Source of the DNA: an uncultured Planctomycetales bacterium
GTDB lineage: Bacteria; Planctomycetota; MHYJ01; JACPRB01
Assembly: GCA_964468745.1 (NCBI GenBank)
Contig: CAYXVY010000337.1
Span: 5,390 to 69,389 of the forward strand
DNA length: 64,000 nucleotides
Direction: 5' to 3'
Shown: positions 1 to 15,725 of the stretch, in pieces
How the letters are laid out: each line of letters opens with the position of its first letter
Position numbering within the stretch: position 1 is the first letter of the stretch
Notes under the pieces: model-generated
Told to the model about the DNA's origin: nothing
Seen by the model: only the letters and a program-made list of their open reading frames with translations
Database searches by the model: none
Made by a program: the position numbers and the translations under genes

Positions 1-306
1 TCGTCGCTGACGTTCGACTGGTTCCCGCGCGAGCAGAACACGGCGGCGGATGCGCTGACGAACCTCGCGTACGCGGAGTACACGGGGGCGAAGGTCAAGG
101 CGCCGACGACGGACGTGATGATGGTCGAGCTGGTCTTCGCGGCGCAGCGGGATGCGGTGGCAGCGGCGCTGAGGAAGGCGAAGATCGAGGCGACGGTGAC
201 AGCGGTGCCGGGAGGGGCGCGGGTGCAGGCGGAGCTGCCGACGAGTGCCGACGCGCTTAAGCCGCTCTTGAAACTGAAAGAGAAGCTTGAGGGATTGGGA
301 GAGTGA
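1..306 (+). CDS. 3' part of an RNase HI-like protein (runs off the window start) with a short C-terminal extension
   Basis: Frame 1 is open from base 1: SSLTFDWFPREQNTAADALTN matches the RNase HI C-terminal 'W.PREQN..AD.L.N' motif. It continues in frame into ORF 115..306. Confidence 0.7.
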   Translation, partial: SSLTFDWFPREQNTAADALTNLAYAEYTGAKVKAPTTDVMMVELVFAAQRDAVAAALRKAKIEATVTAVPGGARVQAELPTSADALKPLLKLKEKLEGLGE

Positions 307-372
307 TGGGTAGTGCGTGATGAGTAGTGCTTCCGTACCCAAAACTCATCACTCACAACTCAAAACTCATTT
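301..372. repeat. Heptamer-period intergenic stutter repeat (ACTCANN) with an inverted copy
   Basis: actcatc-actcaca-actcaaa-actcatt at ~344-371; complementary gagtgatg(a/g)gt at 301-325. Confidence 0.55.
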
Positions 373-423
373 GACTGCGTGATCAGCGAGCATCTCCGTT
401 GTCGAATTGAGCGGAGGTGGACG

Positions 424-897
424 ATGGTTGCAAAGCGCGGATTCACTCTCGTCGAGTTGCTCGTGGTGATCCTCATCATTGGCTTGCTGGCGGCGATGAT
501 CATCCCGGGTCTCACGTGGATGTTGTGTCGCGGGCGCGCGACGGCGACGCTCGCGACAATCATGGAGCTGCACTCGGCGACACAGATGTACACCCTCGAG
601 CAGGGGGTCAATCCCGCGGACGCGCCGGGGTACGGCACGAGCACGCTCGTGACGGCGCTTCAGTCGCAGAGTGCGAAGAAGGTGCCGTACTTCTGGATCG
701 ACGCGGCCCGTCTCGACACCGCGGGGGACATCAAGAACGACGTGCGGTCGGGCGAGATCATCCACTATCGCGACAACGCGAAGAACTGGCCCTCGAACGC
801 CGGTGACGCCACGGCGCACAACAGGGCGACGTACGACCTCTGGGCGATGGGATGTGCGGGGGTGCCCGACAGCGAGAACAACTGGGGCGGGGAGTGA
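424..897 (+). CDS. Type IV pilin / GspG-like pseudopilin with N-methylation motif
   Basis: MVAKRG|FTLVELLVVILIIGLLAAMIIP class III signal (G-F cleavage, E5). The start is probably ATG 424 rather than 379. Confidence 0.9.
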   Translation: MVAKRGFTLVELLVVILIIGLLAAMIIPGLTWMLCRGRATATLATIMELHSATQMYTLEQGVNPADAPGYGTSTLVTALQSQSAKKVPYFWIDAARLDTAGDIKNDVRSGEIIHYRDNAKNWPSNAGDATAHNRATYDLWAMGCAGVPDSENNWGGE

Positions 898-4015: not shown

Positions 4016-5467
4016 ATGCCCATCCGCCACTGCCAGAAATGCGGCCTGAAGGTTCTCATCGACGAGACCCAGACGACGGCCAATCCGTTCTACTGCCAGC
4101 GCTGCGCCGCCACGGCGAAGGCGCAAGCCGCCGCGCCGGAGGCCAAACGCGCCGACCCGATGCCGATGGTGTCGAAGCGCGACCCCGCGTCGGCGCCGGG
4201 CAGCGCTCCCGTGACCGGGGGGGGCAAGGGCGGACCGGTGAAGGTCCTCTGCCCGTACTGCAAGGCGTCGTTCTCCGGCCGACTCCCGGCGAAGCCGGCC
4301 AAAGGCGCATGCCCGGTCTGCCAAAAGGAACTTGTCCTGCTGCCGGACGGCAAAATCAAGCCGGCGGCCACGTTCGATCTCGCAAAGTGGCAGAAGGAAC
4401 AGGAGCTCGCGAAGTACGGGGGGGACCCCGGCGTTGCCGAGCAGGCGCGCGCCGTTCAGAAGGCGCTGGAGCGGTCGAACCGCGATTTGGAGATCCCGCC
4501 GCCGGAGTCGGAGGGGATCGATCCCGAGGCGACCGCGACCTCGGACGACGGGGGGAGCTACTCGAACGAAAACGAAGCCACGCTCATCACGCCGCGCGCC
4601 TCGGCGGCGGATCCGCTGAGCGGACTTGGCGGCGAGACGATGCTCGACATGGGCCGGCCGATCGACACGGGTGACAACGCCGGTCGCCGCGCCGCACAGG
4701 AAGAGCGCGATCCGCTAGCGGTCCTCGGCGACGATGCACCGCTGGAGGGCGACCCCAACGCCGCGACAATCGTGGACGATCCGCCGCCGGTTCCCCAGGA
4801 GGCCGAGGCGATCGAACAGGAAGTTCCGACGATCAAGCAGGTTCCGGAGTCCGCGCCGGCGCTCAGCCGCCGTCCGGCCCCCGCGGCCTCCCGCTCGCCG
4901 CTGCCGCCGGTGACCGCTCCCGCCGCCGAGCCGGAGGCGAGGACGCCCGCGACGCCCGGCTCGCTGCGCTCGGGTCCGAGCGGCGCGAAGGTCGTGTTCG
5001 CGGCGCTGCTCCTCATCATTCCGGTGGCGCTCGGAGGCGTCGGGATTTTCGTGAAGAACAACGCCGAGCTGAACAAGCTGCTCGGCAAGCTGGGGCCGAT
5101 CGGATCGCAGGGCTTCCGCAAGCTGCGGGAGAAGGTCGACGCCGCAATGACGCCGCCGCCGAAGCCCGCGCCGCCCCCCAAGCCCGTAGCGCCCCCGACG
5201 ACCGCGACGGAAGCGCCGCCGCCCGTCCCCAAGCTGAGCGACGCAGACTTCAAGCGGCAGACTGAGCCGATCATCACCGACATGTGGACGACGATGCGCT
5301 TCGCGCAGCTCGAGATCAAGAAGCTGCAGCGCGACCCGACGGGGTCGCACGGCAAGGCGATCGAGTTCCAGCAGCAGAAGCACGACAGCGCGAAGAAGCG
5401 CTACGACGAGCTGCAGGCGGAGTACAAGGAGCGCTTCGGGGCGGAGTTCAAGGCGGCGGACCAGTAG
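4016..5467 (+). CDS. Zn-ribbon, low-complexity, single-TM membrane protein
   Basis: CQKC/CQRC and CPYC/CPVC pairs, Pro/Ala/acidic linker, TM VVFAALLLIIPVALGGVGIFV, C-terminal coiled coil. Confidence 0.8.
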   Translation: MPIRHCQKCGLKVLIDETQTTANPFYCQRCAATAKAQAAAPEAKRADPMPMVSKRDPASAPGSAPVTGGGKGGPVKVLCPYCKASFSGRLPAKPAKGACPVCQKELVLLPDGKIKPAATFDLAKWQKEQELAKYGGDPGVAEQARAVQKALERSNRDLEIPPPESEGIDPEATATSDDGGSYSNENEATLITPRASAADPLSGLGGETMLDMGRPIDTGDNAGRRAAQEERDPLAVLGDDAPLEGDPNAATIVDDPPPVPQEAEAIEQEVPTIKQVPESAPALSRRPAPAASRSPLPPVTAPAAEPEARTPATPGSLRSGPSGAKVVFAALLLIIPVALGGVGIFVKNNAELNKLLGKLGPIGSQGFRKLREKVDAAMTPPPKPAPPPKPVAPPTTATEAPPPVPKLSDADFKRQTEPIITDMWTTMRFAQLEIKKLQRDPTGSHGKAIEFQQQKHDSAKKRYDELQAEYKERFGAEFKAADQ

Positions 5468-7030: not shown

Positions 7031-7345
7031 CTACCAACGTTTGTATTTCTGAAGTTCCATGCGGACGCGGCTGATCGACTCGGCCCAGCGTTCTTCGAAG
7101 AGGGGCTTGTCGACCTGTTCGGGCATCGCGACAGGCTGGATGGGCGGCTGCCCGGGCTGGGAGGTGGGCGGAGGGGGCTTGGTCGTCGCCGCTTCCATGT
7201 CGGCGAGCGCGGCGTCCACGTCGTTGCCGGGGCGCTGCGTCGAGTCGGGCGGAGGATTCGCAGGCTCGTCGCTGGAGCGGGTGCCGCTGGAACCGCCGCA
7301 GCCGGCCACGAGGACCGCGGACGCCAAGGCGATCAGGACTCTCAT
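7031..7345 (-). CDS. Small lipoprotein
   Basis: MRVLIALASAVLVAG-C lipobox, Pro-rich linker. Confidence 0.7.
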   Translation of the reverse strand: MRVLIALASAVLVAGCGGSSGTRSSDEPANPPPDSTQRPGNDVDAALADMEAATTKPPPPTSQPGQPPIQPVAMPEQVDKPLFEERWAESISRVRMELQKYKRW

Positions 7346-7454
7346 GCGAACCTCCGGATGAGATGGACGGATTGACTCTATCCCAAGCCCTCGCGATTTC
7401 GTACAAAAATATGGCGGACGGGTCTAAGATACCCCGCGCAATCCTTCTCTGGAG

Positions 7455-9083
7455 GTGCCCATGCGGCCGTTTCTCGCCATCGCGCTCGTACTTGCGGCGT
7501 TCGCGCCCGGATGCGACATAAAAAAGGGGCCTCCCGGCCGGCCGCCGGTCGTCCCGATGCTTGCCATCCAGGAAGAAGTGCTCCAGGACCGCGTCGCCCA
7601 CGCGAAGCAGCTGCTTGCAGACGCGGGCTACGCCGGAGGGAAGGGCTTCCCGAAGCTCGAGATCCTCTACAACACGGACGAGGGGCACAAGAAGATTGCC
7701 GCCGTCGTCCAGCAGATGTGGCGCAAGAATCTCGGCATCGACGTCGAGCTGCGCAACACCGAGTGGAAGGTGTATCTCGACGACCTGTCGAAGCTGCGCT
7801 ACCAGATCGCGCGCCGCGGGTGGATCGGCGACTACCGAGATCCGAACACGTTCATCGACATGTTCACGTCGCTCAGCGGAAACAACAACACGGGATGGAA
7901 GAACGCACAGTTCGACCAGCTCGTGAAGGACGCGTTCCGCGAGGCGGACAAGGTGAAGCGGCTGGCGATCCTGCGCGACGCCGAGAAGATCCTGATGACC
8001 GAGCTGCCGATCATGCCCATCTACTTCTACGTCTCGTCGAACTGCTGGACCGACAAGGTGAAGGGCGTGTACGCGAACATCCAGGACGTGCATCCGTTGA
8101 ACGAGGCGTACGTCGAGGGGAAGGACACGCTGATCATCAACAACGCCACCGAGATCCAGACGCTCGACGCCGGCCTGGCGCGCGGCGTTCCGGAGGATCG
8201 AATCATCAGCACAATGTTCGAGGGTTTGACGATTCGCGATCCGAAGACGCTCGACCCGAAGCCCGGGATCGCGCAGAGCTGGGAGGTTTCGGCCGATGGG
8301 CGCACCTACACGTTCCACCTGCGCGAGGCGCAGTGGAGCGACGGCAAGCCCGTGACGGCGGGCGATTTCGAGTACGCGTGGAAGCGCGTGCTCGATCCGG
8401 CCACGCCGACCGACTACGCGAGCCAGCTCTACTACGTCAAGGGCGCGGAGGATTACAACACCAAGAAGACGCCCGACGCTTCGAAGGTGGGGGTGCGCGC
8501 GCAGGACGATCGCACGCTGGTCGTCGAGCTCGAGAATCCGTGCGCGTACTGGCTCGATCTCTGCGCGTTCTTCACGCTCTATCCGGTGCGCAAGGATGTG
8601 ATCGACAAGCACGGCACGAACTGGACGCGCGCGGAGAACATCGTCGTCAACGGCCCCTTCAAGCTGAAGGAGCACAAGCCGAACGACTCGCTGACCGTCG
8701 AGAAGAATCCGAAGTACTACAACGCGGGCGTCGTGAAGCAGCCGATGGTCACGTTCCTGCCGATCGAGAACCGGCTGACGGCGTGGGGCCTGTACAGGGA
8801 CGGCAAGTGCGACTGGGTGACGTCGCTGCCTCTGGAGCAGATCGAGGAGATCATCAAGCGGCCGGATTATCGCGGCGACACGTATCTCGGCACGTACTTC
8901 TACTCGTTCAACGTGGAGCACGAGGCGCTGAAGGACAAGCGGGTGCGCAAGGCGCTCACGCTGGCGATCGACCGCGAAATCATCGTGAACAAGATCACCA
9001 AGCAGGGACAGAAGCCCGCGTACTGGTACGTGCCGCCGATCTGGGAGACGTTCAAGAGCCCGCGGTTCGACGTCAAGGATTGA
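7455..9083 (+). CDS. oppA: Oligopeptide ABC substrate-binding lipoprotein (family 5), circularly permuted
   Basis: Lipobox APG-C. OppA C-terminal lobe first (AKQLLADAGY..LYNT..HKKIA..RRGWIGDY), then the N-terminal part (EIQTLD..FEGL..WSDG.PVTA.DF..RVRKAL.LAIDR) from residue ~222. Confidence 0.9.
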   Translation: MPMRPFLAIALVLAAFAPGCDIKKGPPGRPPVVPMLAIQEEVLQDRVAHAKQLLADAGYAGGKGFPKLEILYNTDEGHKKIAAVVQQMWRKNLGIDVELRNTEWKVYLDDLSKLRYQIARRGWIGDYRDPNTFIDMFTSLSGNNNTGWKNAQFDQLVKDAFREADKVKRLAILRDAEKILMTELPIMPIYFYVSSNCWTDKVKGVYANIQDVHPLNEAYVEGKDTLIINNATEIQTLDAGLARGVPEDRIISTMFEGLTIRDPKTLDPKPGIAQSWEVSADGRTYTFHLREAQWSDGKPVTAGDFEYAWKRVLDPATPTDYASQLYYVKGAEDYNTKKTPDASKVGVRAQDDRTLVVELENPCAYWLDLCAFFTLYPVRKDVIDKHGTNWTRAENIVVNGPFKLKEHKPNDSLTVEKNPKYYNAGVVKQPMVTFLPIENRLTAWGLYRDGKCDWVTSLPLEQIEEIIKRPDYRGDTYLGTYFYSFNVEHEALKDKRVRKALTLAIDREIIVNKITKQGQKPAYWYVPPIWETFKSPRFDVKD

Positions 9084-9084
9084 C

Positions 9085-10020
9085 GTGCTGTCGTTCGTCG
9101 TCCGGCGCCTGTTCGGCGGGGTCATCACGCTCTTCGTGATCGCCACGCTCTGCTTCACCATCACGCGGCTTGCGCCGGGGAGCCCGTTCTCCTCGGAGCG
9201 CACGATGCACCCCGAGATCATCAAGAACTTCGAGGTGTTCTACGGCCTCGACAGGCCCATCCTTGTGCAGTACGGACGCACGATGTGGGGCTACCTGAAG
9301 GGCGACTTCGGCCCGTCGATGCACTATCGCGATCGGACGTGCAACGACTACGTGTGGCCGGGATTCAGGACGTCGGTCATCCTCGGCACGCTGGCGGGGC
9401 TGCTGGCGCTCGCCATTGGGCTGCCCCTTGGGCTCGTGGGTGCCGCGTACCAGAATCGCGCGCCGGACTACGCCGCGATGACCTTGTCCGTGATGGGCAT
9501 CTGCGTGCCGAACTTCCTCCTCGGGCCGCTGCTGGTCCTGCTCTTCACGTTCGGGCTCGGCTGGTTGCCGTCGGCACGCTGGCCGGAAGACTGGTCGCTC
9601 TCGGAGCTGCGCAAGCTCATCATGCCTGCGATCACGCTGGTCATGGTGCACGTCGCGTACATCTCACGACTCGGGCGCGCGGGGATGCTCGACGTGATGA
9701 ACAAGGACTACATCCGCACGGCGCGCGCGAAGGGGCTGTCGGAGTGGGTTGTCTTCCTCAAGCACGGGCTCAAGAACGGCGTCACGCCGGTCGTCTCGTA
9801 CGCGGGGCCGATGTGGGCGCTGATCATCACGGGTTCGATCGTCGTCGAGTCGATCTTCGCGCTGCCGGGGCTGGGGACGCACTTCGTGAAGTCCGCCATG
9901 AACCGCGACATGAACCTCATCATGGCGTGCGTGATGGTGTACAGCACGATCGTGATCTGCATGAACTTCCTTGTTGACATCGCGTACGCGTATCTCGATC
10001 CGCGGGTGAGGTTGAGCTGA
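9085..10020 (+). CDS. oppB: Oligopeptide ABC permease
   Basis: DYIRTARAKGLSE EAA loop; GSIVVESIFALPGLG. Confidence 0.95.
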   Translation: MLSFVVRRLFGGVITLFVIATLCFTITRLAPGSPFSSERTMHPEIIKNFEVFYGLDRPILVQYGRTMWGYLKGDFGPSMHYRDRTCNDYVWPGFRTSVILGTLAGLLALAIGLPLGLVGAAYQNRAPDYAAMTLSVMGICVPNFLLGPLLVLLFTFGLGWLPSARWPEDWSLSELRKLIMPAITLVMVHVAYISRLGRAGMLDVMNKDYIRTARAKGLSEWVVFLKHGLKNGVTPVVSYAGPMWALIITGSIVVESIFALPGLGTHFVKSAMNRDMNLIMACVMVYSTIVICMNFLVDIAYAYLDPRVRLS

Positions 10021-10928
10021 TGAGCCCGAGATCCTCTTTCGTGATCGACCCCGACGCCGCGCTGGCCGCGCCCGTCGGCCGCTCTCCGTCCCAGATGGCG
10101 CTGCGGAGGTTCATGAAGAACCGCCGCGCGCTCGTTTGTTTCTTCCTGCTCAGCCTGATCGGCGGGGCGACGCTCCTGGTCCCGTGGGTCACGCCGCACG
10201 ACTACCGCGACCAGGACTGGGACTACACGGGGGGCGAGCCGAACGGCAAGTACTGGATGGGGACGGACACGCTGGGGCGCGATCTGATGTCGCGCGTCTT
10301 CCTCGGCGGGCGGATCTCATTCGCGGTCGGATTCCTCGCGACCGCGGTGAGCGTCGTCATCGGCATCCTCTATGGCTCGCTGAGCGCGTTTCTCGGCGGG
10401 CGCGCGGACAATCTGATGATGCGGTTCGTCGACGTGCTGTACGGGCTGCCGTACATGCTCATCATCATCATCGTCATGGCGTTCCTGAGGACGAAAGACA
10501 TCGTCATCGTGTTCTGCGTGCTGGGCCTGTTCGGCTGGCTGACGATGGCGCGGATCGTGCGCGGGCAGGTGCTCTCGCTGCGCGAGCGCGAGTTCGTCGA
10601 GGCGGCGCGGGCGCTGGGCGCAGGCACATGGCACATCATCTTCAAGCACATGATCCCGAACATCATGGGGCCGGTGATCGTCTACACGACGCTCTCCGTC
10701 CCCGCCATGATCCTCTCGGAGTCGTTCATCTCGTTCCTGGGCCTGGGGATTTCCGAGCCCGAGACATCGTGGGGCATGCTGATCAGCGAGGGGGCGCAGG
10801 CACTCGGCGGCGACAAGAGCTACTGGTGGCTGACGACGTTCCCCGGCGCGTGCCTGGCGATCACGCTGTTCTGTCTCAACTCGATCGGAGACGGCTTGAG
10901 AGACTCCTTTGATGTCCAGCAGCGTTAG
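10020..10928 (+). CDS. oppC: Oligopeptide ABC permease
   Basis: MGTDTLGRD, REFVEAARALGA, ESFISFLGLG motifs. Confidence 0.95.
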   Translation: MSPRSSFVIDPDAALAAPVGRSPSQMALRRFMKNRRALVCFFLLSLIGGATLLVPWVTPHDYRDQDWDYTGGEPNGKYWMGTDTLGRDLMSRVFLGGRISFAVGFLATAVSVVIGILYGSLSAFLGGRADNLMMRFVDVLYGLPYMLIIIIVMAFLRTKDIVIVFCVLGLFGWLTMARIVRGQVLSLREREFVEAARALGAGTWHIIFKHMIPNIMGPVIVYTTLSVPAMILSESFISFLGLGISEPETSWGMLISEGAQALGGDKSYWWLTTFPGACLAITLFCLNSIGDGLRDSFDVQQR

Positions 10929-12492
10929 GTTTGCGCTCGTCCTTCTGCTGCTTGTCGGCTGCGACAAGTCCGGCGCCGGGCTCCCGACGACAAGCGACCC
11001 GAGGATCCTCGAGGCGCGCAAGTTGCTCGCCGACGCGGGATTCCCGGAAGGCAAGGGGTTCCCGAAGCTCGAAGTCCTGCACAACGACGCCGACTGGCAC
11101 AAGAAGATCGCCGCCGCGATCCAGGAGATGTGGCGCAAGCAGCTCGGGATCCAGGTCGAGCTGCGCAGCGAGGAGTGGAAGGTGTTCCTCGCCAATCGCG
11201 GTGCCGGGAAGTTCCAGATCGCGCGCGGCGGATTCACCGGCGAGTATCGCGACCCGCACGCGTTCCTGCGTCTCTTCGCCAGCGACAGCGGATTCAACTC
11301 GACGAAGTGGTCGAGCCCGGAATTCGACCGGCTGCTGCTCGCGGCGAACGACGAGCTCGATCCGGCGAAGCGTTACGCAATGCTGGGGAAAGCGGAGCGG
11401 CTGCTCCTCGACGAGGCGCCGACGTTTCCCGTCTTCCACTATGTAGGCCACAACTGGATGCGTCCGTTCGTAAAGGGGGTGCAGCCGAACTACCGCGACA
11501 TGCATCCGATGCAGCACGTGTGGATGGATGGCGAGGGGACTCCGAAGGACGGCGTCCTCCTCTTCTTCGCCGGCGAGGAGGCCGGGACGCTGGACCCGGG
11601 ACTCTCTCACGACATGCGCGGCCTCAAGACCGCGATGGCGCTCTTCGAGGGACTCGTGCAATACGACCCGAAGGATGCGTCGCCGATGCCCGCTGTTGCC
11701 GAGCGCTGGGAGATTTCTCCCGACGGCCGCACCTACACCTTCCATCTGCGTGACGCGAAGTGGTCGAGCGGCGACGCGGTCACGTCGGAGGATTTCGTCT
11801 GGTCGTGGCGTCGCGTCATCGATCCCGCCACGGCGTCGCAGTACAAGGACCTGATGTACTACGTGAAGAACGGCCGCGCGATCGCGAACAAGGAGAAGCC
11901 GAAGGAGGAGCTCGGCATCCGCGCGCCGGACGCGAAGACGGTCGTCGTCGAGCTGGAGCGTCCGACGCCGTACTTCCTGTCGGTGCTGTGCCTCAACGTC
12001 TTCTTTCCCGTGCATCGAGCGACGGTCGAGAAGCACGGCAAGGACTGGACGCGCGTGGAGAACATCGTCAATAACGGGCCGTTCCGCATTACGGCGTGGA
12101 GGATCAACGACCGGCAGGTGTTCGAGGCGAATCCCGCCTATCGCGCCGCGGGCGACGTGAAGCTGAAGAAGTTCGTGTGGCTCACGGGGAGCAACTTCTC
12201 GACCGCGTGGAACCAGTACATCGCGGGTGAATGTCATTGGACCTATCAGTCGCCGAACGAGCTGCTCGAGGAGGCCGTCAAGCGGCCGGATCACCAGGCG
12301 GCGCCCTACAACGCGAGCTACTTCTACGTGTTCAACGTGACGGTCAAGCCGCTCGACGACGTGCGCGTGCGTCGTGCGCTCTCGCTGGCCGTCGATCGCG
12401 ACGTGATCACGAAGCACGTGGTGAAGGGGGGCGAGACTCCCGCCGATCGCATCACGCCGAAGTCTCTGTATCCCGAGTACGAAGTGAAATGA
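10912..12492 (+). CDS. oppA: Second circularly permuted oligopeptide-binding lipoprotein
   Basis: Lipobox LVG-C, then EARKLLADAGF..RGGFTGEY.. first; EAGTLDP..FEGLV..KWSSG..VRRALSLAVDR after residue ~208. Confidence 0.9.
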   Translation: MSSSVRFALVLLLLVGCDKSGAGLPTTSDPRILEARKLLADAGFPEGKGFPKLEVLHNDADWHKKIAAAIQEMWRKQLGIQVELRSEEWKVFLANRGAGKFQIARGGFTGEYRDPHAFLRLFASDSGFNSTKWSSPEFDRLLLAANDELDPAKRYAMLGKAERLLLDEAPTFPVFHYVGHNWMRPFVKGVQPNYRDMHPMQHVWMDGEGTPKDGVLLFFAGEEAGTLDPGLSHDMRGLKTAMALFEGLVQYDPKDASPMPAVAERWEISPDGRTYTFHLRDAKWSSGDAVTSEDFVWSWRRVIDPATASQYKDLMYYVKNGRAIANKEKPKEELGIRAPDAKTVVVELERPTPYFLSVLCLNVFFPVHRATVEKHGKDWTRVENIVNNGPFRITAWRINDRQVFEANPAYRAAGDVKLKKFVWLTGSNFSTAWNQYIAGECHWTYQSPNELLEEAVKRPDHQAAPYNASYFYVFNVTVKPLDDVRVRRALSLAVDRDVITKHVVKGGETPADRITPKSLYPEYEVK

Positions 12493-12519: not shown

Positions 12520-14232
12520 CTACTTCTCGAGTCGCACGTTCTGCAGCAGGATCCGCCCCATGGGATTCAGCGATAGCTTCACGTTGGACTTCGCGACGAT
12601 GAAGTCGCCCCCCGTGTGCAGCGGCACAATCGCGCCCCCTTCGGCGAGGAGCGACGCCTCCGCGCGCGCGAGGAGATTGAGCCGGGCCGCCGCGTTTGAC
12701 TCACGGCCGGCCTCGGCGAGCAGTTTCCCTGCATCGCCGGTCGCGAAGGGCGCCAGGAAGGCGGCGGGATCGAACGTCGGGCCGCTCCAGACGCCGTACG
12801 CGAGATCGTAGTCCGCGGCGTCGAGCGCCTCGCGATACGCCGGCCACTCGCGCAGGTCGAGCCGGATTGCAATGCCGAGGTCCTTCTCCAGCTGCTCTTT
12901 CATCGCGATCACGACACTCTGATGCGATTTCGGGCCGAGAAAATTGAGCCGAGGGAACTTCGTGAGATCGGGCTGCTCGGCGAGGAGATGACGGATCGCA
13001 GCGGTGATGTCCTGGACCGGAGCGGACGCGCCGACGTACCCGGGGCACCCCGGCGGAACGAGGCCGACTGCCGCTTCACATCCCGTACCGGCCTGCTTCA
13101 ATACCCTCGACCGGTCAATCGCGAGGGCGATGGCCGCGCGGATCTTGCTCGACGCGCACGGCCCTTTCGCTGCGTTCAGACTCAGATGCCACATCGTGAA
13201 CGTCGCGAACGGCCGCACGTCCCCCTTGCGGACGAGCTCGGGCACGCTCTCGGGCGGGACGAGATCGCGATCGATCCACTGCACCTGTCCTCGCGCGAAC
13301 GCTTCCAGCGCGCCCGCGATGTGAGCGCCGAGGACCAAGGTCACACGTTCCGGACCCGCCGGTCCCGCGCGCAGGAGCGTCAGCTCGTCTCGTGTCCACT
13401 TCTCAACCCGGTACGCGCCGTTCGTGGCGATGTTCTGCGGATGCGTCCATTGATCGAGCTTGCGCTCGACGATTTGCGCCGGCACCGGAAGAAAGGCGGG
13501 CCCGGCAAGCTCCTCGAGAAGGGTCGGGGACGTCGCCGCGAGCGTCACGCGCAGCGTCCGCGCATCGACCGCTTCCGCGCCGATCGCGCGCTCGTCCAGG
13601 TCGGGTCGCGTCGCAGCTTTCGCGGCCTCGTCGAGTGCGGCGCGGACGGCCGTCTCCCGTTCCGCCTCCGCCAGACCGCGGATGGCATTTGCATGCCGTT
13701 GGGTCGCGCGATCCTTCCAGCGGTTGGCGATCGCGAGACGTTCCGAGGCAGGCTGCGAATCGAACGTGAGCAGCTCCTGGTCGAGGCGCCGGTCTTCCCA
13801 GAACGCCAGGGCGCCGCGCACGGGCGCAAAAGCGAAGACCGTGGCGCTGCCGGTCTCCGGTCGAAGCACGCGACGCCAGGCGTAGACGAAATCGCCCGCC
13901 GTCACCGGCGCGCCGTCGGACCACTTCACGTCGCGCAGATGAAACGTCCACGTGAGGCCGTCCTGGGAAGTTTCCCAGCGCTCGGCCGCGCCCGCGATGA
14001 CGGACGTTCCGTCCGGTCCGAAGGTCGTGAGTCCCGTGAAGAGCGAGAGCGCGAGGCGGGTCGTAACGATACCGGCCCCCGCGTGCGCGGGATCGAGCGA
14101 GCGGGGCGTGCCCCAGGCGACGCGAAGCTCGTTCGACGCCGGGTCCCTGTCCTGAGCGAGCGCAGGCGAGTCGAAGGATTGCAGGAGGACGAGCAGGGCA
14201 AGCGTCGCGAATCTCATGTCTCTTATGGACAA
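12520..14232 (-). CDS. Peptide ABC substrate-binding protein, canonical domain order, with a helical insertion
   Basis: PRSLDP..LFTGLT..WSDGAPVTAGDF..IRAAIALAIDR..DYDLAYGVW; extra ~70-aa segment after the VRGA region. Confidence 0.85.
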   Translation of the reverse strand: MSIRDMRFATLALLVLLQSFDSPALAQDRDPASNELRVAWGTPRSLDPAHAGAGIVTTRLALSLFTGLTTFGPDGTSVIAGAAERWETSQDGLTWTFHLRDVKWSDGAPVTAGDFVYAWRRVLRPETGSATVFAFAPVRGALAFWEDRRLDQELLTFDSQPASERLAIANRWKDRATQRHANAIRGLAEAERETAVRAALDEAAKAATRPDLDERAIGAEAVDARTLRVTLAATSPTLLEELAGPAFLPVPAQIVERKLDQWTHPQNIATNGAYRVEKWTRDELTLLRAGPAGPERVTLVLGAHIAGALEAFARGQVQWIDRDLVPPESVPELVRKGDVRPFATFTMWHLSLNAAKGPCASSKIRAAIALAIDRSRVLKQAGTGCEAAVGLVPPGCPGYVGASAPVQDITAAIRHLLAEQPDLTKFPRLNFLGPKSHQSVVIAMKEQLEKDLGIAIRLDLREWPAYREALDAADYDLAYGVWSGPTFDPAAFLAPFATGDAGKLLAEAGRESNAAARLNLLARAEASLLAEGGAIVPLHTGGDFIVAKSNVKLSLNPMGRILLQNVRLEK

Positions 14233-15725
14233 TCAAGGGTGACTGGAAGTTTTCCGAGGAACGGGATCTCGCCGCAGAGAGAGCGCGCGGCGGCCACCTG
14301 GAGGCACGGAGCCTCGCCGTAGGCGCAGACATAGGCGGCGGCGCCGGGGATCTGGCCGATGACGTACGGATTTCCGAACGACACGACGACGAGCTTCGAG
14401 ATGGGACCCAGCGAGAGGCGCGCATCCTCGATGAGCCGCGTGTCCGCCTCGGTGCGGCCCGAAAATGAGCGGTACTTGGAGAAGATCGCGAGCACACCGA
14501 CGTGCGAATCCCCCTGGAGGCGACCTCGATCGGCGAGCGCCTTCTCGAACAGGGTCAGGTCCCCGCGCGCGCTGTCGTCGCGCATCGCCGCGTAGCGCAC
14601 GCCCTGCGCGAGAGGCAACGTCTTCGAGCGGTCGAACGCGAGCGTGATGGCGGCTTCGGCGATGCGCTTGGCCGCGTCGCGGTGCTCCACGGAGTCGACG
14701 ACACCTTCGGCGGCGGCCACGTCCACCGTCGGCGAAGCGATGACCCCTGCCTTGCATTTCGCGGCCCATATTCGCTCGATCGCCGCATCGAGCGTCTGCT
14801 CCGGGAGCCGGCCGCTCTGGACCGCCTTCGTCACGGCGTCGATCGCCTCCCACGGACCTTCCGGATAGAGCGCGATGTCCGCTCCCGCCTCCAGGGCGCG
14901 GATCACGGGCTCTTGCGGATTCGCGAGATTGCGCACGGCTCCCATCATGAGCGCGTCGGTGACGATGAGTCCGTCGAACTTCATCTCTCGGCGCAAGAGA
15001 TCGGTCGTCACCGCGCGCGACAGCGATGCAGGGCGCTCGCGGTCGAACGCCTCCACGAGGAGATGCGCGGTCATCACGGCGTCTGCTTCGGCGAGGGCCT
15101 CCTGGAAGGGCCGCAGCTCGCGGGCCCGCAGCGTCGCCGCGTCGGCGCTCACGCGAGGCAGCACGAGGTGCGAGTCCTGCGTCACGTCGCCGTGCCCGGG
15201 AAAGTGCTTGAGGCACGAGAGGCCGCCGCCCTCGCGCACGCCTCGGGCGAAGGCCGCGGCGAGGCGACCCGCCAGCGCCGGATCCTCGCCGAACGAGCGC
15301 ACGTTGATGATCGGATTCTTCGGGTTCGACTGGACGTCGGCGACGGGCGCGAGAATCCACGGCACACCGAGAGAGCGCGCTTCGCGTGCGGTGACGCGTC
15401 CCTTGAGGTTCGCCAGATCGGCGGAGGTGGTCGCGCCCACGGCCATGTTCGTCGGGAGCGCGGTCGCTCCGCGCACCTGGTAGCCGACGCCGTGCTCGTG
15501 ATCGGCGCAGATGAGCAGCGGAACGCGCGCGACGTTTTGCAGGGAATTGACGGTCGGGGGGATATCGAAGACCGATCCGCCGAAGAAGCAGACTCCGCCG
15601 ATGCCGGCGCGCGCGAGGCGGCCGAGATCTTCGTAGTCGGGCTTGTCGAACCGGAGGTCGACGAAGAGGACCTGGGCGGCCTTCTCGCGCAGCGAGAGCG
15701 ACGGCGGGCGCGTCGAGGCGATCAC
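14223..15725 (-). CDS. nagZ: GH3 beta-N-acetylhexosaminidase
   Basis: ADHEHG, KHFPGHG, VTDALMMGA motifs plus a C-terminal GH3 domain. Confidence 0.88.
   Translation of the reverse strand: MIASTRPPSLSLREKAAQVLFVDLRFDKPDYEDLGRLARAGIGGVCFFGGSVFDIPPTVNSLQNVARVPLLICADHEHGVGYQVRGATALPTNMAVGATTSADLANLKGRVTAREARSLGVPWILAPVADVQSNPKNPIINVRSFGEDPALAGRLAAAFARGVREGGGLSCLKHFPGHGDVTQDSHLVLPRVSADAATLRARELRPFQEALAEADAVMTAHLLVEAFDRERPASLSRAVTTDLLRREMKFDGLIVTDALMMGAVRNLANPQEPVIRALEAGADIALYPEGPWEAIDAVTKAVQSGRLPEQTLDAAIERIWAAKCKAGVIASPTVDVAAAEGVVDSVEHRDAAKRIAEAAITLAFDRSKTLPLAQGVRYAAMRDDSARGDLTLFEKALADRGRLQGDSHVGVLAIFSKYRSFSGRTEADTRLIEDARLSLGPISKLVVVSFGNPYVIGQIPGAAAYVCAYGEAPCLQVAAARSLCGEIPFLGKLPVTLDCP

Follow-up and report, generated by a model that had tools for sequence, protein, structure and literature searches.

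The window analysed here, meaning the whole 64-kb stretch (66% G+C) of contig CAYXVY010000337.1 from an uncultured Planctomycetales bacterium, contains a tightly coupled plus-strand row of four genes, A-oppB-oppC-B, whose members overlap or stand 2 nucleotides (nt) apart (Table 1). The outer two genes encode substrate-binding lipoproteins of the OppA type, proteins A and B, and the inner two encode permeases of the OppB and OppC types. Judged by their sequences, A and B are homologues of OppA with a permuted topology and not canonical members: the last ~40% of the OppA chain stands first in both, and the old N-terminal part follows. A third family-5 binding protein, C, encoded beside B, served as an internal control.

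The swapped order is seen in several sequence comparisons. The Pfam profile SBP_bac_5 (cut-off 32.4 bits) matches A and B in two swapped stretches each, with the first 254 of its 368 positions falling on the C-terminal half of either protein (in A, residues 268-533 correspond to positions 2-254); C is matched in one colinear stretch, 3-364 of 368. Against PDB sequences, phmmer aligned residues 44-204 of A to positions 338-497 of Salmonella OppA (1b05; E 1e-33), and residues 221-531 to positions 10-323 (E 1e-71). When mature E. coli OppA (sequence from NC_000913) was doubled and used as the reference for local alignment, A became colinear over residues 44-528 with OppA 338..517 followed by 1..320, and B over residues 28-517 (numbering of the 527-aa open reading frame, ORF) with OppA 336..517 followed by 1..319, while C corresponded to OppA 24..483 in normal order. 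Aligned to one another, A and B are colinear (45% identity over 503 aa, E 8e-155), and the alignment of A with C is swapped. The NCBIfam OppA equivalog NF011684 gave the same split picture, scoring A at 392.6 and B at 344.4 bits, both below its cut-off of 947. A and B exceed the profile threshold for family 5 without having its canonical chain order. Colinearity of A and B with an already characterised subfamily was considered and rejected.

These alignments bear out the initial annotation of the window, which had read A and B as natural circular permutants of OppA-type family-5 proteins, expected SBP_bac_5 to return two swapped partial matches for each, and placed the cut in the loop just ahead of the 'EAKKLLAEAG' helix, where the PDB and doubled-OppA alignments agree in putting it. 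The old N-terminus, given there as nt ~8118 in A and ~11530 in B, begins by alignment at residue 222 of A (nt 8118) and near nt 11518-11530 in B. It had been expected that local aligners would overlook the permutation, and they, like annotation pipelines, do give partial or swapped matches only; in databases the permuted proteins go by generic names, for example 'hypothetical protein' or 'ABC transporter substrate-binding protein' (ABC, ATP-binding cassette). Two details need amending. Protein C does keep the canonical order, as its single Pfam stretch indicates, but its gene lies on the minus strand. The 'short G-rich linker' thought to join the old termini is a remnant of the canonical C-terminal tail, with nothing inserted: the junctions of A and B, where ~5 and ~11 residues have been lost, join the old C-terminal tail straight to the old N-terminal strand.

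Table 1. Coordinates of the permuted binding proteins, their parts and their neighbours in the window
Feature	Position	Strand	Basis
Protein A, permuted OppA-type substrate-binding lipoprotein	7455..9083	+	ORF, 542 aa; SBP_bac_5 303.7 bits
Predicted signal peptide and lipobox of A, ..FAPGC (Cys20 = 7512..7514, Asp at +2), with tether aa 21-43	7455..7583	+	read from sequence
Segment of A matching the canonical C-terminal ~35% (E. coli OppA mature 338-517)	7584..8117	+	alignments to OppA
Junction of old termini in A (..HPLNEAYVEG/KDTLIINN..), no inserted linker	8091..8132	+	alignment; AlphaFold2 confidence
Segment of A matching the canonical N-terminal ~60% (OppA 12-320), then 14-aa tail to stop	8118..9038	+	alignments; Foldseek
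oppB-type permease	9085..10020	+	Pfam BPD_transp_1 and BPD_transp_1_N; begins 2 nt past A stop
oppC-type permease	10020..10928	+	Pfam OppC_N and BPD_transp_1; overlaps oppB stop and B start
Protein B, second permuted OppA-type lipoprotein, 526 aa	10912..12492	+	ORF; SBP_bac_5 282.2 bits
Cys17 of the predicted lipobox of B, LLVGC (signal ..LLLVGC), Asp at +2	10960..10962	+	read from sequence
Junction of old termini in B (..HVWMDGEGTPKDGVLLFF..)	near 11500..11545	+	alignment
Protein C, family-5 binding protein in canonical order, converging on B; internal control	12520..14232	-	single Pfam stretch
GH3 (NagZ-like) glycosidase, overlaps C start	14223..15725	-	Glyco_hydro_3 266.6 bits

The likelier start of A is the ATG at 7461 (540 aa) and not the GTG at 7455, as a GGAGG motif lies 5 nt upstream of the former at 7452-7456. 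A scan for promoters and terminators found nothing above chance. Upstream of the row lie two ORFs for which Pfam returned no match: a Pro-rich 104-aa ORF at 7031..7345 on the minus strand, possibly a lipoprotein (..LVAGCGG), and a 483-aa ORF at 4016..5467 on the plus strand, which has a Cys-rich, zinc-ribbon-like motif at its N-terminus and long Pro/Ala-rich regions of low complexity.

Predicted fold and binding residues

AlphaFold2 models, built on alignments of permuted homologues, present both proteins as compact single domains of high confidence (A: predicted local distance difference test, pLDDT, 92.9 and predicted template modelling score, pTM, 0.88; B: 93.6 and 0.89). Confidence is maintained across the junction of A, where 10-residue blocks of residues 201-230 have mean pLDDT values of 95-98, and falls below 60 in residues 1-34, low confidence being confined to the signal peptide and a tether of ~24 residues. 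In a Foldseek search of the PDB, structures of OppA, MppA and DppE rank first for the model of A, whose old N-part superposes on 1ola and 8arn with a root-mean-square deviation of 1.3-1.7 Å over ~317 columns. No solved chain aligns to this model along its whole length (at most ~345 columns in the same search), as is to be expected if no structure of such an order has been solved. The confident models thus suggest that A and B keep an OppA-like fold despite their permuted chains.

Tracing the chain through the known fold indicates what the permutation would change. Beyond its lipoprotein signal peptide and flexible tether, the chain of A or B would enter the C-lobe with the helix equivalent to OppA 338-352, reach the old C-terminus in domain I and pass directly into the old N-terminal strand; it would next form domains I and II, recross the hinge and end in domain III beside its start. 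Both hinge crossings should stay as in OppA, as should the binding cleft, and only the chain ends, hence the lipid anchor, would shift from the N-lobe to the C-lobe. For the domain limits of OppA we assume residues 1-44, 169-270 and 487-517 for domain I, 45-168 for domain II and 271-486 for domain III; these limits put the new termini of A and B in domain III. The lipobox accordingly now precedes a segment of domain III, the C-lobe, where the canonical one precedes domain I, in keeping with the initial proposal that the anchor had moved to the other lobe.

The residues that we take to hold the termini and backbone of the bound peptide in OppA (D419, R413, H371, G415, W416, W397, Y109 and V34) are all kept in A, whose transposed C-terminal segment carries the peptide-terminus residues as R120, G122, W123, D126, H78 and W104. 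The terminus and backbone positions are conserved in 90-95 of 95 permuted homologues. The pocket of B differs from that of A (W416F, C417T, D419E), and C is without the peptide-terminus residues of OppA (R413 is replaced by Y, D419 by P).

Both proteins begin with a hydrophobic signal sequence and a lipobox whose Cys is followed by Asp (..AAFAPGC(20)D in A, ..LLLVGC(17)D in B), so lipidation and membrane tethering of A and B appear probable. Cys20 of A is at least 90% conserved in the A-family alignment. Most permuted homologues have lipobox-like motifs, with Asp at +2 in 42 of the 66 lipoboxes detected, although these counts are lower bounds because the search pattern missed many obvious lipoboxes; several homologues instead have an ordinary cleaved signal peptide and no lipobox. 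In E. coli, Asp at +2 leads to retention in the inner membrane, a rule that may not hold for Planctomycetota.

Distribution and origin of the permuted genes

Permuted proteins are numerous. With A as the query, 82 of the best 120 protein clusters were permuted and 38 were in canonical order, from metagenome-assembled genomes (MAGs) of Planctomycetes/Planctomycetota, Candidatus Methylomirabilia and Candidatus Entotheonellaceae; with B, the best 102 clusters were all permuted, at the same site. A query from the class 1 described below added 51 further permuted clusters, among them proteins of the cultured Helicovermis profundi, Fusibacter bizertensis and Clostridium grantii, which are named 'peptide ABC transporter substrate-binding protein'. 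The permuted clusters, defined at 90% identity, thus amount to ~95 + 102 + 51, or ~245 in total, with few overlaps between the searches. Related loci were collected from a scan of GTDB species genomes, and their chain order was classified by tblastn of the two halves. The synteny A-oppB-oppC-B is kept in five Planctomycetota MAG loci (L001, L003, L004, L005 and L006), a sixth (L002), a short contig, having the A-type gene only. Bacillota MAGs (L007-L011) proved, unexpectedly, to carry permuted genes as well. The survey of taxonomic spread envisaged at the outset places the permutant in Planctomycetota MAGs and in Bacillota, cultured isolates included.

Mapping the retrieved proteins onto doubled OppA separated at least four classes of cut site. 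Class 1 is cut near OppA 280 and begins with the 'VRKALxLAIDR' helix (L007, P0149, P0200). Class 2, the majority, is cut near OppA 320-340 and comprises A and B of the window as well as L009 and P0234 from Bacillaceae. Class 3 is cut near OppA 353-357, after the 'AKxLLxEAGY' helix (L011, P0125, P0133, P0178), and class 4 near OppA 80, in domain II, with P0118 as its only member. P0118 (L082, 642..2444) starts with 'GRAVTAHDFVYGW' and ends with '..FKLRECYWT'; its sole carrier is one 2.6-kb contig, on which its gene lies directly upstream of oppB and downstream of a gene for a polytopic membrane protein, and its nearest relative is the class-2 permuted P0087.

In neighbour-joining (NJ) trees built from 'un-permuted' sequences, the nearest relatives of each minor class are canonical OppAs: the class-1 group adjoins OppAs of Peptostreptococcaceae and Eubacteriales, and P0200 pairs with P0128, P0178 with P0147 and P0125 with P0115. 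Permutation has therefore arisen several times. Traces of how it happened are left at the junctions. P0125 is 66% and 72% identical in its two parts to canonical P0115, and its junction ('..VYIEK/GGKILPPDK/QVFRFSN') consists of a full canonical C-terminus joined to what remains of the N-terminal tether of P0115 ('CPGGGKNTDEPNKEVEQVLRFNN'). B-type junctions keep the '..GGAAP'-like C-terminal tail of canonical relatives, and A-type junctions are 4-5 residues shorter. Tandem-fused OppA proteins of the order N-C-N-C also exist (P0121, P0124, P0129, P0148), as do four-module proteins (P0122, P0123). Judging by these junction fossils and fused proteins, the most likely origin of the permuted genes is duplication followed by fusion and truncation: tandem oppA genes would fuse in frame, an internal deletion would remove the first N-part while sparing the signal peptide, and loss of the last C-part would leave a permuted single module. 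With its fused intermediates, its junction fossils and its four or more independent cut sites, this would be an unusually clear case of permutation by that route.

Two side observations concern tandem modules. Two Peptostreptococcaceae MAGs have a canonical oppA directly behind a class-1 permuted one within a single operon (L007 7839..11326, L010 8193..11266), an arrangement of the kind from which fusions and permutations could start. P0122, P0123, P0191 and P0245 are very large and contain two to four OppA-like modules in tandem; P0123 (2843 aa) has BTAD and AAA_16 domains ahead of four modules, P0191 has TPR repeats, and OppA modules seem to have been recruited as sensor domains of STAND/SARP-type regulators.

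For A and B themselves, the initial annotation supposed a single permutation that preceded their duplication. Related operons do not fit this simple history. L083 and L085 carry a canonical lipoprotein (591 and 587 aa) ahead of oppB-oppC and a B-type permuted protein behind; L086 has a long permuted protein of 598 aa in the first place and a B-type one in the last; L082 has the class-4 P0118 directly ahead of oppB; and the window, L001 and L003-L006 have the short permuted A, then oppBC and B. From these layouts, A's position is polymorphic for chain order and B's position is always permuted. In a bootstrapped NJ analysis (67 taxa, 200 replicates), the B clade and the clade of the canonical proteins of about 590 aa (canonical-590) each had 100% support, an exclusive A+B clade appeared in 0 of 200 replicates, and A grouped with canonical-590 in 28%; mean distances were 0.74 between A and canonical-590, 0.87 between B and canonical-590 and 0.97 between A and B. 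A canonical protein at A's position, together with the missing A+B clade, requires at least two order-changing events. Either A-type and B-type proteins acquired their permutations separately, in almost the same loop, or an early permutation was reversed in canonical-590; both need at least two events, and the trees, which resolve the shallow clades but not how the A-type, B-type and canonical-590 groups branch, cannot decide between them.

The strongest competing account retains a single ancestral permutation before the A/B duplication and makes the canonical protein at A's position a reversion by a second permutation at the junction. The cut sites of A and B do agree within ~2 residues, the best matches of B outside its own family are A-type permuted proteins, resolution of the tree is poor in its deep branches, and re-permutation is known in the lineage, since P0118, cut at OppA ~80 and encoded upstream of oppB, is nearest to P0087. 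However, no replicate contains an exclusive A+B clade and A lies closer to canonical-590 than to B, the canonical-590 proteins are lipoproteins with ordinary canonical termini, and a length difference of 4-5 residues separates A-type from B-type junctions. Similar cut sites were moreover reached independently in Bacillota (L009, P0234), so that a shared site is weak evidence of a shared event. We consider one permutation followed by reversion unlikely, if still a serious contender. Also of note, a helical insert of ~55 residues with the motif '..Q(K/R)RHA..', located by eye between the equivalents of OppA ~135 and ~150, is common to C, canonical-590 (e.g. P0069), the long permuted proteins (e.g. 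P0087) and P0118, and is missing from A, B and the OppA of E. coli, which complicates the phylogeny.

Anchor, docking and probable transport role

In the DppABCD complex of M. tuberculosis, the lipoprotein DppA rests on the translocator via its hinge and N-lobe; its N-terminal loop and lipid follow transmembrane helix 2 of DppB, and it was proposed that the complex can assemble only once this N-terminal region is recognised (PMC10954201). DppB of the E. coli DppABCDF complex has a scoop motif that inserts into the cleft between the lobes (PMC12136057). Given such docking on DppB, a tether that leaves the C-lobe could matter. The OppB and OppC proteins that stand beside canonical, short permuted or long permuted A are nevertheless ordinary orthologues (57-77% identity) with no pattern linked to chain order. 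For this reason, and because of the homologues devoid of a lipobox and the long tether of low model confidence, we weakly disfavour the initial suggestion that docking on OppBC is altered, and regard it as a minority hypothesis.

A fuller form of this idea makes the permutation adaptive, in that an anchor on the C-lobe would alter the hold on OppBC (a fixed versus a swinging lobe) or would let two receptors share a translocator. The course of the DppA N-terminal region along DppB helix 2, with the role in assembly proposed for its recognition (PMC10954201), would agree with it, as would the predominance of lipoproteins with Asp at +2 among the permuted proteins of this family and the presence of two permuted binding proteins in one operon. 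Yet one operon position is shared by canonical and permuted proteins, next to permeases that show no order-linked divergence at 57-77% identity, several permuted homologues, having no lipobox, resemble soluble proteins of the periplasm, the tether is long and of low model confidence, and the cut sites vary between lineages. We therefore hold an adaptive anchor to be doubtful. More doubtful again is the broadest version, in which the connectivity of OppA would be an evolvable trait that cells exploit, the C-lobe tether would change engagement with OppB/OppC, and the canonical/permuted polymorphism would reflect selection on docking geometry and not drift. Were it true, two tethered receptors of different specificity, A and B, could serve one translocator.

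The transporter to which A and B would belong is incomplete at this locus. A motif scan (Walker A plus the [LFYM]SGG signature) found no oppD/oppF-type ABC ATPase gene either within the 64 kb of the window or within L001-L006, the related Planctomycetota loci, so oppD/F must be elsewhere. In Bacillota, complete oppBCDF operons flank the permuted genes in L007, L009 and L011, and in L009 (permA-oppBCDF) and L011 (oppBCDF-permA) the permuted gene is the only binding-protein gene on the retrieved contig; this arrangement is the best available argument, from gene content, for permuted proteins as working Opp receptors. C and the NagZ-like GH3 gene are followed by AnmK and by a SIS-domain (MurQ-like) gene in L083 (11182..16236) and L085 (9730..14543), and L086 (5403..9160) has the C-type binding protein, AnmK and the SIS gene without the GH3 gene. 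By gene content, this C-GH3-AnmK-SIS row is a peptidoglycan-recycling set adjoining the opp-like operon, a context in which murein-derived peptides are a plausible cargo, by analogy with E. coli MppA-OppBCDF.

The same context could be taken to mean that A and B are not transport receptors at all, acting as a sensor, as a chaperone or as a muropeptide receptor solely for peptidoglycan recycling. ATPase genes are missing nearby, peptidoglycan-recycling genes adjoin (the NagZ-like GH3 in the window, AnmK and MurQ-like SIS in related loci), OppA-like modules are fused to STAND/SARP regulators elsewhere, and E. coli MppA is an example of an OppA paralogue specialised on murein tripeptide (PMC3173086). 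Such a role is very unlikely in our view, since A and B are translationally coupled to oppB and oppC, A keeps the canonical peptide-terminus residues, and a permuted protein is the sole receptor seen next to complete oppBCDF operons in Bacillota MAG loci; muropeptide uptake would also still be transport, so that this alternative overlaps in part with a function in uptake.

We conclude that A and B are very probably genuine, functional permuted Opp receptors. Most likely, A would bind short peptides through the conserved Asp, Arg, Trp and His residues that hold their termini, B would have a modified pocket, and both would hand their cargo to OppB/OppC, with ATPases encoded elsewhere. Several points weigh against this reading: the Planctomycetota examples all come from MAGs or metagenomes; no ATPase gene accompanies the row; B is substituted at two terminus-binding positions (W416F, D419E); Foldseek depends on sequence order, and its superposition covers only the old N-part of A; and the fusion-truncation route was pieced together from junction fossils and fused proteins. 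An artefactual order, from assembly chimeras or from adjacent oppA pseudogene fragments read as one ORF, can be set aside as next to impossible: although most examples stem from metagenome assemblies and tandem oppA genes are common enough for mis-joins to be conceivable (in L007 a permuted gene precedes a canonical one), ~200 independent clusters, drawn from many samples, agree in chain order and cut site, permutants are found in complete genomes of the cultured isolates Helicovermis profundi and Fusibacter bizertensis, each is one uninterrupted ORF with the signal peptide exactly at the new N-terminus, the binding-site residues are conserved, and the AlphaFold2 models are confident across the junction.

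Comparison with known binding proteins

No report of a permuted OppA or other cluster C protein was found in the full-text literature searched, a scope outside which subscription-only papers lay, and no solved structure of one in the PDB. The family may be of use in several ways. Orthologous operons in which canonical, class-2 or class-4 receptors stand beside the same OppBC constitute a natural experiment on the effects of connectivity and tether. The natural cut sites (OppA ~80, ~280, ~320-340 and ~355) mark positions that tolerate new termini, which is of value for the design of biosensors, a field in which splitting or permuting binding proteins is routine. A search with doubled profiles would correct the annotation of such proteins and would probably reveal permutants in other binding-protein families.

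The nearest precedent is TpMglB-2 (Tp0684) of Treponema pallidum, a naturally circularly permuted glucose-binding lipoprotein for which a 'Cluster Bc' was proposed (PMC4990184). Like A and B, it is a natural permutation of a tethered ABC binding lipoprotein that sequence searches had missed (PMC4990184). TpMglB-2 is, however, a type I protein of cluster B with no sequence-level homology to A and B, which belong to cluster C and SBP_bac_5; lacking homology to MglB-type cluster B proteins, A and B fall outside Cluster Bc. In TpMglB-2 a fourth hinge crossing was added and the permuted part is poorly conserved (PMC4990184), whereas the parts of A and B are ~40% identical to OppA, their hinge crossings are predicted to be unchanged, and the event recurred at several cut sites.

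MppA (3O9P, 4TOZ), an OppA paralogue that shares the Opp permease OppBCDF, has the canonical order; its likeness to A and B lies in their peptidoglycan-recycling neighbours (NagZ-like, AnmK and MurQ-like), the link to muropeptides being suggested by context. In the DppABCD and OppABCD systems of M. tuberculosis (PMC10954201; PMC12136057), cluster C lipoprotein receptors likewise dock on a BC-type translocator, but the tether leaves the N-lobe along DppB there and must leave the C-lobe in A and B. The tandem-fused proteins P0121, P0124, P0129 and P0148 share the C-to-N junction of A and B, but have two complete modules where A and B have one.

The closest relatives remain the OppAs themselves, of E. 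coli and Salmonella (3TCH, 1OLA, 1B05) and of B. subtilis (8ARN/8ARE), members of cluster C with ~40% identity to A in both parts. A shares with OppA the residues for the peptide amino and carboxylate groups (D419, R413, H371, W397, W416), and A and B share its oppB/oppC partners; OppA of B. subtilis is also a lipoprotein, as A and B are predicted to be. Unlike OppA, A and B have a rotated order, with 338-517 first and 12-320 second, and their termini and anchor belong to domain III and not to domain I. Taken together, A and B are an unrecognised, recurrent topological variant of a textbook protein and not a new system.

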